Sequence record: ON229909.1
Length of the DNA stretch: 64,000 bases
Origin: Escherichia phage vB_EcoM_CE1
Direction: 5' to 3' (one strand)
Shown: positions 2,778 to 55,405 of the stretch, one piece after another
Layout of the letters: each line of letters begins with the position of its first letter
Position numbering within the stretch: the stretch's first letter is position 1
Made by a program: the position numbers and the translations under genes
The notes under the pieces: model-generated
Database searches by the model: none
Seen by the model: only the letters and a program-made list of their open reading frames with translations
What the model was told of the DNA's origin: nothing

Positions 2778-3572
2778 TTATACCCTTGGACCATATATTA
2801 CTCCAACATTTTGCCATGTTGGAGCTGATCCTATAACAGCATATCCGGCAGCGCCACCAGCTCCAACTTTTAGAACTTTACCGCCATCATACCAGGCATT
2901 TTGTCCATTTGCGCCAGCATCACCACCCTGGCCAGAGTGAGCATTACCATAATTATAACCACCTCCTGGGCCATCATAAGAAGCTGCGCCGCCGGAATAA
3001 CCTCCGCCTCCTCCTGGGCCAAATGGTCTTCCTCCACCACCACCAATATCTTGCCATTTTGCACCAGAGTGAGGACGATAAGCGATACCACCTCCACCTC
3101 CACCTCCACCACAAATTACTCCACCGTTATTAATTCTTAATCGTCCACCGATGTCATTTTGAATACAATGACCACCTTGTTGACCATTACCATCTCCGCC
3201 GGAATGAGTCCATCCACCTTGTCCACCTCTACCCCACATATGGACGCCGCCACCAATATTCAACTGAACATATTCATTAGGTGTATCTCCGTACATGAAG
3301 AATAAAGGAACGTCTCTAGAATATGATACCAAATTTCCGGTAATATTAAACACTATAGGTGCACTACCTGCCTCAAAACATCTATCTCGGAACCATTGGC
3401 CATTGAAGTTATGGTCTGCTCCAAGCGTGTGAATTATTTCAACAGATCGACCTATCATATTACTCATCCAGAACGGAATGCCCATTCTTAATCGTTGGGC
3501 CGCGCCACCCATCCAATTTTGTCCTGTATTAACTACTGCAGACGATCCTACCCACGGTCCTGTTACTGCCAT
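2778..3572 (-). CDS. 38: gp38 long tail fiber adhesin, T2-type glycine-rich
   Basis: 264 aa from ATG with GGAGG SD (track ORF begins 4 codons earlier); poly-Gly motifs (GGGGGGGG, GGGGG) typical of T2/T6-type gp38 adhesins. Confidence 0.9.
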
Positions 3573-3603: not shown

Positions 3604-6600
3604 TTATTTTAACAACGATTTAACTAATGCTTTAAGTTCTTCGATTTCTGATTTAAGTTCTGCAATTTCTGCAGTATGCTCATTGATTGCGGCTGTATTT
3701 AAACCAATTACACCGTTATAGTTCAAACGAAGTAAAGCTTCGCCATCAGGGTCACCTTCAACTAATTCTGGCAAAATAGCTTGAACTTCTTGAGCTATCA
3801 AACCGGCGTTAGGTTCCCATTTCTGATTGCCTTCTTCATCTAGGCCTCGCTTCTGCATATAAGTGTAACCGTTAATTTTAGAAAGCTTCTGAGAAGCATT
3901 TTCAAATTTAACGAGGTCTTTTTTAACGCGAATATCAGAACGGACATAAACATCACGGACAAACGTTGAATAGCTATCATTTGCCTGAACGAGATGCCCA
4001 TGAGAAACAATTGCTTTACCGGCTTCTGTCCAAAAAGCACCGTATGAATCCCATAACCCCTCATGTGCCAGACGTTGAGACCCCCATGACGCAATATGAA
4101 CACCATCGGCAAACATGTTAATACGACCATCACCACCATGAACTAATCCTGTATCATTATCACCAATAGCAAGACACGCGCCGCCCCATACAGGGTCACC
4201 ACCGCCAGCTGATAATCTTCCAGTTTTAACCATGTTAGGAACATACATAACTCCATTGTGGTGGAATTCATAGATAGCTTGTGGGTCATGGCCATTTTCC
4301 TGGTTACCTACACGAATAATACCTTGTGCCCAGTTATTAGGAATGCGTCGCATACCGAAATCAACACCAGATACGTATCCTTCATTCGTAATAACAGATT
4401 TTCCTTTAATAATAGGATAATAACTATCATTACCGACGTAGCCAAAATCCACAAATACGGGAGCTTCTTGACGCCATTGATTTCCCCAATCGCCAGCCTG
4501 GTGACTGGTCCAGACAGAGCCATTAATAAAAAGTCGGTCCCTATTAAAATTAAATGTTCCTTGACCTTGAGGAGAAAGCGCTATTTCGCCGTTATTTGTT
4601 ATGTATACACCGCCTTGTGTAATGTAACTGTAAAAACCTAGACCATTATCGCCGCCGCCTTTGCCTATATACCAATTATTTGTACCACCTACATCACTAC
4701 GGATGTGCGATGAAGCGCCCACGCCTGCAGTTAAAACAAGGGCATCATTTCCAGCAGATAAAGTCAACCTACCGGTCATTGTATCGCCTTCTTTCGAAAC
4801 ACGAGTCGCAATAGCATCACGAATATTTGTAGTATCACCAGCAGAAGTAAACGGTTTCCAGATATCAGACCAGATGTTACCATTGCGAGCAATAGTAGCT
4901 TCACCTCCGCCGACAGAAACGTTATCTGGGAAGTTAACAGTACCGTCTTGATTAAAACGAGACGTATGGCCTTGTGAACCATCTTCTTTCAGATGATGAA
5001 TAACGAATGTACCCGAATTAATTTCAGTACCTAAAGACCAAACGCATTTACCGTTTAAGAATTTCTGTTTAACAATAGGATAATATTTACTTACCGCGTC
5101 ATCATCAATTTCTTGGAAAACAGGAGCTGCTTGTGCATATTGAATATCGTAACCGCCTGCACCTGCACCATGTCCACCGAATTTAATATAGCCGTTCGCA
5201 GCGAACGTATTGTAACTTGATTGTAAATCTGGAATAGTAACTTTACCGGTATCTAAAGCCATACTAAACGGGCGAAGTGGACCGATATCGCCATGTTTAC
5301 CTTCACCGTAAGCAGTTGGAATAATATGAAGACTGCCTTCTGAACGTCTAAAAATAGCTCCATAATCTGCATTCCAAATGCGAAGACCATTTACAGCATT
5401 TGTCGCGATTTCACCGGCTGCGCTGATTGTACCGTCAAATGTAGCATTTTTTACTACTGTCAAGTTTTCATTAACAATCTGGGTGCCATTTATAACCGAT
5501 TCGACTTTACCTGCAGTTGTTCGTTGAATATAGCTCATCCAACTAGTTGCGTCAGAAATTTCCATGACATTTTTACGAGTACCACCTACCGTAGTAAAAG
5601 TGTCACCCCAAACTTTGAGCTCTATATTATCAACTGAACTATATCCTATAGTATTTCCTTTAAAAAGCACAGTTGAAGCATTATTTCTACCATCGATATT
5701 AACAGAACCACCAATAACGTCAATATTACCAGGAGTGACTAATAAACCGCCGTGAGTATTAATGTTTGTAGTACCCTTACCGCGGAAATAATGATGATAA
5801 TTACCGCCTTGGTAATATCCTAAAAGAGTCTGACCATCTCCAAACGCGTTATTATCGTGATATGTCACGACAGTAGCAAGAGCATAGTTTTCAGTCGGAG
5901 GAGTAGTTAAATCTGTTCCATTAGTAGAATATCCAGCTACAAATTTTCTTAGGCTAGTTGTTTCGCTAGGGCTAAATAAAAATGTTTTCGTTCCATTATT
6001 GACGCTGAAATAATATCCATCCTGATGCCATTTTAGCCCGGTATCATTATCGCCAAGAGAAATTGAAGCAGTCCCTAATTCAGAGTATCCTTTAGAACCA
6101 CCTGGAAGACCTACAGAAATAGAATGACCGGCTTTCAATCCACCGGCCCAGTTAAACGACCAAAGATAAGTGTCTAAGCCATCTCCGGAATACCAGGTTA
6201 TTCCGTCATTAACATTAACTTCGTGGAAAATACCTGCTCCTACAGCATTTCGCATAACACGGAGGTGGTTAATAGCCGTTTCGCCTTCTTCAAATGGAGT
6301 ATTATTTGCTAATGAAGATATATCATAATCGCCCGTCTTCTTCCCATTTGTAATAACTTTATTGGTATAAATTACCGGAGTTGATACAGATTTCCACCCA
6401 AAAACTTCTGGTGAAGAAAACAAACCATTTCCATTAAAAGCGAAAGTGCTTTCTGAACCAGCTTTGTAATCTTGAACTCTAATATTAAGAACTTGTGTAG
6501 TTAATCCATCATTAGCAGGAGAAAAAATGATTCCACGTTCACGGTCAGCTAAATCATGAAAACGAACATGTGCTGTACCTGAACTTTTTGTAATAAGTTC

Positions 6601-15942: not shown

Positions 15943-15970
15943 GGGGACCCTAGAGGTCCCCTTTTTTTTA
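15943..15970 (+). terminator. rho-independent terminator after gene 32
   Basis: GGGGACC-CUAGA-GGUCCCC hairpin followed by T8. Confidence 0.7.
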
Positions 15971-19476: not shown

Positions 19477-19756
19477 ATACAAATCCGACTTTGATGTTAA
19501 TATTCACCGTGGTACATTTTGGGGAAATTACGTCGGTAAAGATGCTGGCAGCCGGGAGGCTGCCATTGAATTATTCAAAAAAGATTTTATACGTCGAATT
19601 AAATCCGGAGAAATAACTAAAGCACATTTAGAGCCTTTACGTGGAATGAGGCTAGGATGCACATGTAAACCAAAGCCGTGTCATGGTGATATAATAGCTC
19701 ATATAGTTAACCGATTGTTTAAAGACGATTTTCAAGTTGAGGACTTATGCAATTAA
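19430..19756 (+). CDS. hypothetical protein with [11 protein letters not shown] motif
   Basis: 108-aa ORF; overlaps previous ORF and nrdA start; true start uncertain. Confidence 0.45.
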
Positions 19757-30250: not shown

Positions 30251-30280
30251 TAATTCATCTGTTAACAAAAAGGAAAAACG

Positions 30281-31312: not shown

Positions 31313-31340
31313 GAGGACTCCTTCGGGAGTCCTTTTTTAT
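31313..31340 (+). terminator. rho-independent terminator
   Basis: GAGGACUCC-UUCG-GGAGUCC hairpin followed by T-run. Confidence 0.6.
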
Positions 31341-31419: not shown

Positions 31420-31752
31420 ATGAAAACGATTAATCTGAACGCCACAGTTAAAACTAAATGCTTCAATGGTAAATATGATGAAACTATGTGGTTCTTAATG
31501 GCAGTTGAAGGTGATATTATTGAAGTAGAAACAACAGAAGGTATGGGAACAGATTTCACCTTTACAATCCAAGTTCATAATTTCTTTACTGGTTGGATTT
31601 ATGAACTGAATACGGTAATCGTTGGAAAAATTGAACAAAATGAATTGGGTGAATGGTATTATGTTACAGCTCGCCAACGTGCCGAACGCTTAATTGAGAA
31701 GATGAAAAAAGTTGGCAAACTTGACATGAAGCATTGGAAATTAGTAAAATAA
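31420..31752 (+). CDS. hypothetical protein
   Basis: 110-aa ORF with GGAGAA SD. Confidence 0.55.
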   Translation: MKTINLNATVKTKCFNGKYDETMWFLMAVEGDIIEVETTEGMGTDFTFTIQVHNFFTGWIYELNTVIVGKIEQNELGEWYYVTARQRAERLIEKMKKVGKLDMKHWKLVK

Positions 31753-44443: not shown

Positions 44444-45192
44444 TATTGTTTATCCTTCTCAATCAGTTTTAATACGAATCCGCGCTCGGCAGGAATCATT
44501 TTCATTATTGAATTTAAACTATAATTACTTTTTACGAGCGTGTGATTGATTTGATAAAAAGTAAATATTTCATCTGGGTTAACTAATAGCTTAAACACAT
44601 CTACTATATCAGTGTATTTTTTTACATACTTATTACAGCATGACATATGCAATGTTAAATTAATAGGATTCATTGCATCGAGAATTTTTTCTAATGTTTC
44701 TATCTCGATGGCGTCAACGAGTTCTATTTGACTGGACTCGCTAATTTCCTTCCAATCATACCACATTTCATCTACTTGAACAGAATGAATATTTTCAGTA
44801 ATCATCTTTGCTTTATTTTCATAAAACTCAGAAGGAAACTTTAATTTAATTTTAACATTAGCTACATCAAAAACAGGTTCCTTTAATTCTTTTTGATATA
44901 TTTCAAATGGAACTGTCTTTTCTTTTTTACATTTTGGACATACAAATGTGACCGGTACTTTAGTTTTACCTATTGACCCTACAAATACCTGTAAAAATAT
45001 AAATGGTTGCCAAGTCTTCGGATAGTCTCCAAAATAATCGGCAATTAAGTCAGCAATTATTTCTTTTTGTTCTTGTGGTGACCGATGTTCTATATCGTTT
45101 CGAACTAACAAAAAATCTCGATAATCTTCTACCGTAAATGGTTTAAAACGATGAACACCATCTGGTAATTTACAACGAATAATGTTTGCCAT
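44443..45192 (-). CDS. 51: gp51 baseplate hub assembly catalyst
   Basis: 249 aa as in T4. Confidence 0.9.
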
Positions 45193-49040: not shown

Positions 49041-49721
49041 ATGATAGATAAAGATTATATTGCAGAGCTGAAGGCTCTTGATGATAATAAAGAAGCTAAG
49101 GCTAAATTAGCTGAATATGCTGAACAGTTTGGTATAAAGGTCAAAAAGAATAAATCTTTTGATAATATCGTTATTGATATTGAAGAAGCCCTCCAGAAGC
49201 TCGCTAGTGAACCTATGCCAGAGACTGATGGGTTATCTATTAAAGACTTAATTAATGCTGCTGATGCTGCAGAGGGATTAAAATATGACGATGAAGAGGT
49301 CAATCCAGAAGCAGCACTTCTGATTGATTCTCCGGTTAAATCTGATATTAAAATTGAAGTGGTAGAAACGGATAAAATTCCTGAAAATACTGACGTTTTG
49401 ATTGAAGATACTCCTTTTGTTGAAGAAAAATTCGAACAGGCTGTAGCTGAGATTATTGAATCTGAAAAGCCGTCTGTATTTACTCTTCCGGAAAACTTTA
49501 GTCCGAATCTTCAGCTGATTGGAAAAAATCCAGGATTCTGCACTGTTCCTTGGTGGATTTATCAATGGATTGCTGAAACTCCGGATTGGAAATCTCACCC
49601 AACTAGTTTTGAACACGCGTCGGCACACCAAACTTTATTTAGCTTAATTTACTACATTAACCGTGACGGATCAGTTCTAATTCGTGAAACACGTAATTCT
49701 TCTTTCGTAACATTAAAATAA
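49041..49721 (+). CDS. inh: Inh inhibitor of prohead protease
   Basis: 226 aa as in T4; between uvsW and hoc. Confidence 0.85.
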   Translation: MIDKDYIAELKALDDNKEAKAKLAEYAEQFGIKVKKNKSFDNIVIDIEEALQKLASEPMPETDGLSIKDLINAADAAEGLKYDDEEVNPEAALLIDSPVKSDIKIEVVETDKIPENTDVLIEDTPFVEEKFEQAVAEIIESEKPSVFTLPENFSPNLQLIGKNPGFCTVPWWIYQWIAETPDWKSHPTSFEHASAHQTLFSLIYYINRDGSVLIRETRNSSFVTLK

Positions 49722-49730
49722 GGATAACTT

Positions 49731-50860
49731 ATGACTTTTACAGTTGATATAACTCCTAAAACACCAACGGGGGTTATTGATGAAACCAAGCAGTTTACTG
49801 CTGCACCCAGTGGTCAAACTGAAGGTGGAACTATTACCTATGCTTGGAGTGTAGATAATGTTCCACAGGATGGAGCTGAAGCAACCTTTAATTATGTACT
49901 AAAAGGACCTGCCGGTCAAAAGACTATTAAAGTGGTTGCAACCAATCAAGTTGCCGATAGTAGTCCCGAAACAGCAGAAGCTTCTACAACTATCACAGTT
50001 CAAAATAAGACACAGACAACTACCTTAGCTGTAACTCCTGCTAGTCCTGCTGCTGGAGTAATTGGAACTCCTGTTGAATTTACCGCTACTTTAGCTTCGC
50101 AGCCATCGGGCGCAAACGCCACATATCAGTGGTATGTAGATGATTCTCCTGTGAGCGAAGCAACTAGTGCTACATTCAATTACACTCCTACTACAAGCGG
50201 AGTTAAAAAATTAAGTGTGTAGCTCAAGTAACAGCGACAGATTATGATACAAAAGAAGTTACTTCTAATGAAGTATCATTGACAGTTAATAAGAAGACAA
50301 TGAATCCACAGATTGCATTGACTCCTCCTTCTATTAATGTTCAGCAGGATGCTTCGGCTACATTTACTGCTAATGTTACTGGCGCACCTGACGCAGCACA
50401 AATTACTTACTCATGGAAGAAAGATTCTTCTCCTGTAGAAGGGTCAACTAACGTATATACTGTCGATACCTCATCTGTTGGAAGTCAAACTATTGAAGTT
50501 ACTGCAACTGTTACTGCTGCTGATTATGATAGCAAAACTATTACAGCAACAGGTCAAGTTCAGGTAACTGATAAAGTTGCTCCAGAACCAGAAGGTGAAT
50601 TGCCTTATGTCCATCCTCTTCCACATCGTACTTCAGCTTACATCTGGTGCGGTTGGTGGGTTATGGATGAAATTCAAAAAATGACTGAAGAAGGTAAAGA
50701 TTGGAAAACTGACGACCCAGATAGTAAGTACTACTTGCATCGTTACACTCTTCAGAAGATGATGAAAGACTATCCAGAAGTTGATGTTCAAGAATCGCGT
50801 AATGGATACATCATTCATAAAACTGCTTTAGAAACTGGTATCATCTATACCTATCCATAA
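49731..50860 (+). pseudogene. hoc: hoc (outer capsid protein) interrupted by a 1-nt frameshift
   Basis: ORF 49731..50222 (163 aa) stops at TAG; the remainder continues in the +1 frame to 50860; 163 + 213 codons = 376, the length of T4 Hoc. Confidence 0.75.
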
Positions 50861-50865
50861 TCTCA

Positions 50866-50885
50866 GGGGCTTCGGCCCCTTTCTT
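50866..50885 (+). terminator. UUCG hairpin terminator after hoc
   Basis: GGGGC-UUCG-GCCCC followed by T-rich tract. Confidence 0.55.
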
Positions 50886-53839: not shown

Positions 53840-55405
53840 TTAGATACCTTTAACATATACACGGCGGAAGTAAGCGTTTTTACCAAGGCTATTCAGAATA
53901 GAAGGCATACCGCTCTGGATGCGAGAAGCCGGAGCCTGAGCAGCGGATTCTGCAAATGGGTTGATACCGATACCGTAACGAGTTTTGAATCCCATTACTG
54001 GTTGGAAGTTCTTCGGATCGGAACCACGCAGCGGAGTCAGAGCTACATATGGAGCATAGTAAATACCAGCATCCATTTCGTTCGGACCTTTATAACCTAC
54101 AGTGAAATAATCCTGTTTAGCATACTGGTCGATATATACACGGTATTTACCACCCAGAACACCAGCAAATACTGACTTGGTAGTATCAGTGTTAAAGCCG
54201 GTAGCCAGACCCTGTGCAGCATAAGAAATGCCGGTATCAACTGAAGCCAGAACGTTAACTACGTTACGGGAAGCGATAATGAAGTTACCTTCACCACGAC
54301 CGGTCTGACGAGCAATTTCAACTGCTTCTTTGTCAATCTGGAACAACAGAGCTTTAAAGGATTCACCCGCCCAGCGAGCACCACGAATATCAATCGGATC
54401 CTGGAAGTCAAATACACCAGCTTTAGAACCCGGAGTCAGGGTCATACCAGATTTACCAACCTGAGCTGAGTAGTTAATCCAATCAACAACTTCGCGGTTG
54501 ATTTCCAGCATGATTTCGGTAGCTAGAATACCAGACAGTTCAGCATCAGCATCCATACCGTGAACAGCGCGGAGGTCTTGTGCTAATTCGATAGAGTAAG
54601 CAGCTTTCAGCTGGCGAGATTTAGCTTCGATAACTTGTTTATCGATACGGAAGCCCATTTCATTCCATGGGTTATCGGTAGAACCGTTGAAACCTTCCTG
54701 AAGTTCAGCGATAGAAGTAGCCATACCTTCAGCGATTTCTACCAGTACACCAGCTTCCATTTGTTTCTTAATTTCAGCATCTAATTTAGCTACGTCAGAT
54801 GCAGTGGAATCAATTTGTTTAGCTTCTGTAGCTTGCAGATACACAGTACCAGTGTCCTGGAAGAAGTGGGTGTAAATAGTTCCAACTTCAAGAGTATCAC
54901 TTGCTTTCAAAGCAGCGAATTTCTTAGCAGCACCCTGACCAGAGAACATTGCATCTGGACCATACATTGGGTGGAATGCTTCTTTAGCGCCGGCAGCGAT
55001 TGGGTCTTTACCATATACTGCGCGCAGTGCGAATACCTGACCAGTTGGGCTGTTCATCGGCTGAACACCGCAAATATCGAAAGCAATCAGGTTAGGAATA
55101 GCACGACGTACCATACCCATAACAGCTGGGCCAATCTGAGTTACTGCGCCAGAAGTCTGACCAGCAGCGATGTTAGTAGCGTTGTAACCGTGGTCACCAC
55201 CGATTTCAGCTTCTGTTAAGAAAGAACCGAATGCCTGAGCAATTTTTTCGTCTTTGTACTCTGGAGCTGTCTGGAAATCTTTTTCCTGGTTTTCAAAGAT
55301 TTTAGCGATAATCGCTTGTTTGCTATTAGCAATTTCCGGTAAACCTTCACCTTCCAGTAATGGCTTCCATTTGTTCAAAAGTTCAGCTTTAGTTTTGATA
55401 GTCAT
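53840..55405 (-). CDS. 23: gp23 major capsid protein
   Basis: 521 aa, MTIKTKAELLNKWKPLLEGEGLPEIANSKQAIIAKIFENQEKDFQ...; matches T4 gp23. Confidence 0.97.
   Translation of the reverse strand: MTIKTKAELLNKWKPLLEGEGLPEIANSKQAIIAKIFENQEKDFQTAPEYKDEKIAQAFGSFLTEAEIGGDHGYNATNIAAGQTSGAVTQIGPAVMGMVRRAIPNLIAFDICGVQPMNSPTGQVFALRAVYGKDPIAAGAKEAFHPMYGPDAMFSGQGAAKKFAALKASDTLEVGTIYTHFFQDTGTVYLQATEAKQIDSTASDVAKLDAEIKKQMEAGVLVEIAEGMATSIAELQEGFNGSTDNPWNEMGFRIDKQVIEAKSRQLKAAYSIELAQDLRAVHGMDADAELSGILATEIMLEINREVVDWINYSAQVGKSGMTLTPGSKAGVFDFQDPIDIRGARWAGESFKALLFQIDKEAVEIARQTGRGEGNFIIASRNVVNVLASVDTGISYAAQGLATGFNTDTTKSVFAGVLGGKYRVYIDQYAKQDYFTVGYKGPNEMDAGIYYAPYVALTPLRGSDPKNFQPVMGFKTRYGIGINPFAESAAQAPASRIQSGMPSILNSLGKNAYFRRVYVKGI

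Follow-up and report, generated by a model that had tools for sequence, protein, structure and literature searches.

Runs of A are the classical hot spots of spontaneous frameshift mutation in bacteriophage T4 (Streisinger slippage), among them the A6 runs of rII. Under the name of 'phage contingency loci', Gomez, Barrick & Waters (2025) described sites in T-even genes at which an A-run of at least six bases changes by one base, so that a non-essential function is switched off and potentially back on (bioRxiv 10.1101/2025.10.21.683753). Homopolymers of at least six bases in T2, T4 and T6 proved hypermutable by experiment, with a mean indel frequency of about 3e-4. The genes tested in that study were agt and rIIA; hoc is undiscussed there and appears only in the supplementary tables for other runs (bioRxiv 10.1101/2025.10.21.683753). 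T4 Hoc (highly immunogenic outer capsid protein; PDB 5VF3 chain Z, 8T1X; UniProt P18056) has 376 residues and is encoded between inh and gene 24.3/rnlB. The protein is non-essential (PMC3012670). It binds to the centre of the gp23 hexamers via its C-terminal domain (residues 281-376 in T4 Hoc), and its Ig-like domains point outward (PMC10385173; PMC3012670).

In this study, we analysed a stretch of 64,000 nucleotides from Escherichia phage vB_EcoM_CE1, here called the window, in which the hoc gene is broken at a run of A. CE1 was isolated from broiler faeces, taken through multiple rounds of plaque purification, sequenced on the Illumina NovaSeq PE150 platform and assembled with SPAdes; the paper that describes the phage makes no mention of hoc and holds no virion protein analysis (PMC9978775). 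The locus is the same as in T4, since inh lies on the 5' side and genes 24.3, 24.2 and rnlB lie on the 3' side, within the head-gene cluster. The features at this locus, in window positions, are as follows.

49041..49721, + strand: inh (prohead protease inhibitor), the conserved gene 5' of hoc, which fixes the locus as hoc
49731..50222, + strand: hoc 5' ORF, 163 codons and TAG, encoding Hoc residues 1-160 and then the out-of-frame Leu-Ser-Val
50205..50210, + strand: A6 homopolymer in codons Lys159-Lys160, the site of the 1-nt deletion
50207..50860, + strand: downstream frame of hoc (Hoc residues 161-376), TAA stop at 50858-50860, with a Pfam I-set match; the repaired protein matches T4 Hoc (5vf3_Z) over its full length
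50220..50222, + strand: premature TAG stop, met past the frameshift
50865..50880, + strand: terminator-like GC hairpin with a T-rich tail, directly 3' of hoc

The CE1 gene differs from that of T4 in that it is interrupted after codon 160. The earlier note had described hoc as split by a one-nucleotide frameshift, with a first ORF of 163 aa at 49731..50222 that ends in ...TTSGVKKLSV and TAG and with the remaining Hoc in another frame, and this is what we found. The product of the first ORF covers Ig-like domain 1 and most of domain 2, with a Pfam PKD match at residues 101-157. However, the missing nucleotide belongs to the A-run at 50205..50210 (A6 in CE1, A7 in the closest public genome) and not to the AGTGTGTAGCT stretch in which it had been placed, and the rest of Hoc is not in the +1 frame, as had been written, but offset by +2, i.e. 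-1, from the first ORF. The sum of 163 and 213 codons that had been offered in support gives the correct total of 376 aa from a wrong division, the authentic parts being 160 and 216, as the LSV is out of frame. What had been overlooked was the homopolymer of seven A at the lesion, a slippage hot spot that recurs across the T-even phages.

In the intact hoc alleles, A7 reads AAA AAA ATT (Lys159-Lys160-Ile161). Adding one A to the CE1 run gave a 376-aa protein that was identical to the Hoc of the closest public genome and that aligned over its full length with the T4 Hoc chains in the PDB, including 5vf3_Z. The two frames of CE1 hoc overlap by only 16 nt (50207-50222), and the downstream frame is shut on its 5' side by a TAA at 50204-50206, being open only from 50207. 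The earliest start codons in this frame are TTG at 50279 and ATG at 50300; the long downstream ORF, as called, runs on the same strand from TTG 50279 to 50860 and its product ends in ...ETGIIYTYP. The capsid-anchor part (...DVQESRNGYIIHK...) is present in the downstream frame. CE1 hoc therefore has the locus, the N-terminal string of Ig/PKD-like domains and the C-terminal anchor of a hoc gene and lacks a single uninterrupted frame. By its sequence, it is a pseudogene or a null allele. The 163-aa product matches GenBank URG13211.1 exactly ("capsid and scaffold protein", vB_EcoM_CE1), with URG13210.1 and URG13215.1 as the flanking proteins, and this identity means that the frameshift is present in the deposited record.

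The closest public genome is that of Escherichia phage vB_vPM_PD112, with 99.0% identity over 24 kb. The hoc of PD112 is intact (1131 nt) and its only difference from CE1 hoc is one gap: in the alignment, PD112 reads GGAGTT-AAAAAAA-TTAAG and CE1 has AAAAAA at 50205..50210. The two genomes are about 1% apart, yet hoc differs by a single base. We aligned the full 64-kb window to PD112 and tabulated all indels, and the divergent mosaic patches with compensating indels (in the tail-fibre genes and one in gene 23) were set apart from the isolated ones. Nine isolated single-run indels were found between CE1 and PD112. Only the one in hoc lies within coding sequence, and the other eight are intergenic, at a gene junction or in terminator tails. 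Among the 154 ORFs (at least 60 aa) that were matched between the window and PD112, hoc was the sole disrupted one. Moreover, 62 of the 67 homopolymers of at least six bases in the aligned sequence were equal in length in CE1 and PD112, and four of the five that differed were intergenic. Coding DNA makes up about 94% of the genome, and random homopolymer miscalls would be expected mostly there. Real variants that have passed through selection would be distributed in this way, unlike homopolymer miscalls made at random.

Several other differences from PD112 were observed in the window. Intergenic run-length differences are located at 15962-15969, 19525, 19577-19582, 30274-30278, 31333-31338 and 32194; such cases include T8 versus T6 in a terminator tail and A5 versus A6 in a spacer 5' of a start codon, and they show that length changes are common where selection permits. 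A patch of about 100 nt in gene 23 (major capsid protein; 54816-54911, - strand; about gp23 codons 165-197) is strongly diverged from PD112, with indels that sum to zero, an intact ORF and about 99% identity in the remaining gene. Its appearance suggests mosaicism or recombination on a small scale. The segments at 2860-3255, 4497-6440 and 31427-31750 were unaligned to PD112 or aligned only with many compensating indels; they correspond to the tail-fibre adhesin/distal fibre region and to a region of small ORFs, and reflect the usual T-even mosaicism. In PD112 itself, the annotation divides the large terminase into two CDSs, 115-747 and 1321-2706, separated by a 'hypothetical protein' of 600 nt; a mobile ORF may have been inserted here, or this may be a further split gene. 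The 3' end of the window extends only to about PD112 position 1192 in this terminase region (PD112 115-2706).

The break in CE1 hoc is not a singular event. The motif ...YTP.TSGVK(K/R/T)IKCVAQVTA... closes each of the first Ig-like domains of Hoc, and its codons AAA AAA AT(T/C) produce A7. The GVK(K/R)IK codons of hoc were found frameshifted by -1 or +1 in about 17 other alleles. At the DNA level, A6 (-1) is present in CE1, in the ENA metagenome contig ERZ27241579, in Logan SRR29423813, in PM107, PM108 and 101117BS1, which were counted as one lineage, and in T2 and its relative SV76. A8 (+1) is present in IME537, in vB_EcoM_FN, which has a different flank haplotype, and in Logan ERR3531242 and SRR34396944. 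T6 carries a +1 in a GTT-AAAAA-G-AATT version of the site in all three T6 records (AP018814, its RefSeq copy NC_054907 and the separate deposit MH550421). In the BASEL phage Bas39 (FriedrichMiescher), G4 has become G5 three bases upstream, and the gene was annotated by its authors as "Hoc part 1 / part 2". ECCR664 has A4 in place of A5 in a T4-like version of the site; its record is poor and, like some other public frameshift alleles from poor records, it may itself be an error. PM107 is not an intact sibling of PM108, since it shares the A6 with PM108, as does 101117BS1.

Further truncated products of both types, ending at this site, came from a protein search queried with the 163-aa fragment. 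Those of the -1 type, ending in ...GVKKSSV or ...GVKKLNA, came from UPWr_E2, PM105 and an ENA cluster, and those of the +1 type, ending in ...GVKKN or running on as ...GVKKNQVCS... to a later stop, from ACG-C40 and others. Products truncated elsewhere in Hoc numbered only three or four (G29, OLB35, P0049 and Ec_YwIITB1); the search, the source of most of the truncated alleles, listed no protein longer than 283 aa though hundreds of Hoc proteins of about 376 aa exist. The candidate set is evidently biased by length or by word content, and the truncation counts are not an unbiased census. When 60 records were taken at even spacing from 656 hoc-carrying phage records, hoc was broken in four, two of which involve the A-run site. 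In the list of the best 60, a split hoc was seen in two phages, IME537 and T6, both broken at the A-run site. About 5-7% of the sampled sequenced Tequatrovirus records have a broken hoc, and most of the breaks found lie within the same 7-8 bases. The gene is in frame in PD112 and in the large majority of the records listed. Scans of other collections touched few relevant sequences. When IMG/VR was scanned for the site, with a gap of variable length allowed, there were no matches; a conserved hoc 26-mer was present in only two contigs there, both in frame (few T4-like phages are in that collection). A metagenome pattern scan yielded only four contigs, none of them frameshifted (A7 in three, AAAACAA in the fourth), a number with no statistical power.

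As a control, we used a T7 run (A7 on the coding strand) at window position 44617 in an essential baseplate gene; the window holds only five homopolymers of at least seven bases. No exact -1 or +1 variant of this run was found in 499 records; the comparison covers only records whose flanks are nearly identical, and it does not decide the matter statistically. The synthetic -1 and +1 control queries matched 175-204 records at 95-99% identity, as expected for alleles of differing run length. As a proxy for the indel rate, about 17 alleles with a change of one base at the hoc motif stand against no exact variants at the 7-base control run, a count across independent genomes and not a within-population rate. 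The contrast between hoc and the baseplate gene is only suggestive of tolerance in a dispensable gene rather than of homopolymer error throughout the database.

The classical T-even phages differ from one another at this site. T4 hoc reads GTA AAA AGA ATT (A5-G-AA), and this gene, without A7, is intact; the lack of A7 in T4 may explain the silence of the classical literature on this site. T2 and SV76 hoc are broken at the same codons as CE1 hoc and with the same A6 (GGAGTTAAAAAATCAAG), and T6 hoc is broken at the same codons by +1 (GTTAAAAAGAATT). Two of the three classical T-even phages (T2, NC_054931 105200-106800, and T6) have hoc broken at the A-run site, and T2 was reportedly described as lacking Hoc in older work. 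In T2 and SV76, hoc has at least two lesions besides this one and is a pseudogene of long standing, already decayed, whereas the single lesion in CE1 hoc is its only difference from an intact allele. In the literature searched, there was no explicit description of a frameshift hot spot in hoc or of T2 and T6 as phages without Hoc. Frameshifts by 1 nt at homopolymers in dispensable T-even genes are familiar events, and the case of CE1 hoc involves no new mechanism. The specific observation made here is that the GVKKIK A-run is the main recurrent break point of hoc, hit in both directions, in T2 and T6 among others, and unreported in the literature searched.

Variation in hoc was also seen away from this run. 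A second homopolymer, A6 at 50675-50680 (codons ...EIQKM...), lies in the capsid-binding domain and is intact in CE1; it is the second frameshift site in ECCR664 and the only run of at least six bases in T4 hoc. The unrelated hoc alleles of P0049 and Ec_YwIITB1 (PQ356294) share the position of a frameshift in Ig domain 3, outside any homopolymer (...TANVT, followed by ...LLIHGRKILLL), which may be a second, weaker break point of the gene. In addition, hoc varies in frame by whole Ig domains. Forms of 164, 182, 232 and 283 aa consist of one or two Ig domains and the anchor, and those with five domains reach about 474 aa (in-frame variants in 10 listed proteins, AR1 and Bas39). These in-frame length variants presumably arise by recombination between near-identical domain repeats.

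The earlier note had left the choice between a genuine hoc-null phage and a sequencing error. The pair was well chosen, and the Illumina data, the absence of any other broken gene in 64 kb and the recurrence of the lesion favour the genuine mutation. For the broken frame to be a sequencing or assembly artefact, the true CE1 would have A7 and an intact hoc, and one A would have been lost from the consensus. A 1-nt change in homopolymer length is indeed the commonest type of consensus error, and the exact 163-aa product is present on only one contig in public collections. However, Illumina NovaSeq with SPAdes is not a homopolymer-error-prone combination, and a high-coverage consensus of this kind rarely miscalls a run of 6-7 nt. 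Since hoc is the only disrupted gene in 64 kb, with no other coding indel against PD112, the eight other indels being intergenic or at a junction, and with 62 of 67 homopolymers of at least six bases equal in length, an error at this one run is quite unlikely. Identical lesions in many independent genomes, and the presence of the T6 lesion in two separate deposits, also speak against it. It is also possible that the CE1 lysate is a mixture of A6 and A7.

Even with a genuine A6, some form of Hoc might still be made. Full-length Hoc could come from the A6 allele if ribosomes shifted by -1 on GTT_AAA_AAA_TTA or if RNA polymerase slipped and inserted an extra A. A run of AAA lysine codons is slippery by nature, the overlap of the two frames (50207-50222) falls exactly on the run, where a -1 slip would yield authentic Hoc, and CE1 hoc resembles programmed -1 sites such as that of E. 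coli dnaX (A AAA AAG) in having a lysine-codon A-run at the frame junction. Fraser et al. are also said to have reported in 2006 that Ig-like domains of other phage structural proteins are appended by programmed frameshifts. Unlike the programmed sites, however, CE1 hoc has no canonical heptamer (the zero frame is GTT AAA AAA TTA, and T AAA AAA does not follow X XXY YYZ) and no stimulator, as no RNA structure 3' of the run exceeded shuffled controls (MFE -12.5 kcal/mol, z = -0.42). The split layout is not conserved either, with PD112 and most alleles simply in frame. For transcription to slip efficiently in E. coli, a run must usually have about 8-9 bases or more, and A6 falls short of this. 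Full-length Hoc by recoding is thus highly improbable, and at best a trace of the protein would be expected. The other route would be a restart at ATG 50300 or TTG 50279, by which the split gene would yield a functional short Hoc of one Ig domain and the anchor that still decorates the capsid. Natural in-frame forms with one or two Ig domains and the anchor do exist (182, 164 and 283 aa; PMC10385173), and a downstream ORF of 186 aa is predicted by gene callers in equivalent alleles. Nevertheless, the candidate Shine-Dalgarno sequence TAAGAAG, 3 nt 5' of the ATG, is weak and badly spaced, and the restart codon is 78 nt past the stop with no promoter-like site found between them; we give this short form little chance. 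A search for the T4 late-promoter TATAAATA directly 5' of inh/hoc on the + strand found none, which is uninformative.

We consider that CE1 very probably carries a genuine -1 slipped-strand mutation (A7 to A6) at a hot spot of the dispensable hoc gene and that its virion should be without Hoc or nearly so. The change from A7 to A6 would have occurred by slipped-strand replication at the codons for Lys-Lys-Ile, close to where Ig-like domain 2 ends. Translation would then end four codons past the slip and leave a 163-aa fragment of one and a half Ig domains. This fragment has no C-terminal capsid-binding domain (residues 281-376) and so should be unable to attach to the gp23 hexamers and decorate the capsid, which would leave the CE1 virion bare or nearly bare of Hoc. 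Because Hoc is non-essential, the phage remains fully viable, and what has been published on the biology of CE1 is consistent with this. The allele is probably recent, since CE1 hoc is otherwise unchanged from the intact allele while the genomes differ by about 1%, and it would in principle be reversible by +1 slippage. Its fixation was most likely brought about by the single-plaque bottlenecks of isolation, which, when repeated, would suffice to fix a hot-spot variant; alternatively, the allele might already have been segregating in nature.

The hoc run shares with the contingency loci of T-even phages a mononucleotide repeat of at least six bases within a gene (A6 in CE1, A7 in intact alleles and A8 in others), changes of one base, and a non-essential function that is switched off and potentially back on. 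T2, T4 and T6, the phages of the contingency-locus study, have no intact A7 at the hoc site. A further reading is that the A7 tract is a natural, reversible ON/OFF switch for capsid decoration via slippage to A6 or A8 and back. If this were true, T-even populations would be kept as mixtures of Hoc-displaying and bare virions, as a hedge between adherence to mucus or cells and the avoidance of anti-Hoc antibodies or of other costs that Hoc brings, and CE1, T2 and T6 would be OFF-phase isolates. We regard such a switch as rather doubtful. The tract lacks conservation, its second codon being K, R or T in different alleles, and this speaks against its maintenance by selection. An adaptive role of the hoc tract in phase variation is possible but unsupported.

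The two ORFs of CE1 should be annotated as a single hoc with a frameshift rather than as a pair of "capsid and scaffold" proteins. Hoc is the fibre by which T4-like phages adhere to mucus and mammalian cells, the most immunogenic of their surface proteins and a standard display platform. A check of the tract is therefore advised to those who use T-even phages in therapy, in work on mucus adherence or for Hoc display. CE1 has been proposed as a therapeutic phage and tested in chickens (PMC9978775). To judge from its genome, this phage is probably Hoc-less, which could alter its gut retention, clearance and antigenicity relative to Hoc-positive relatives.
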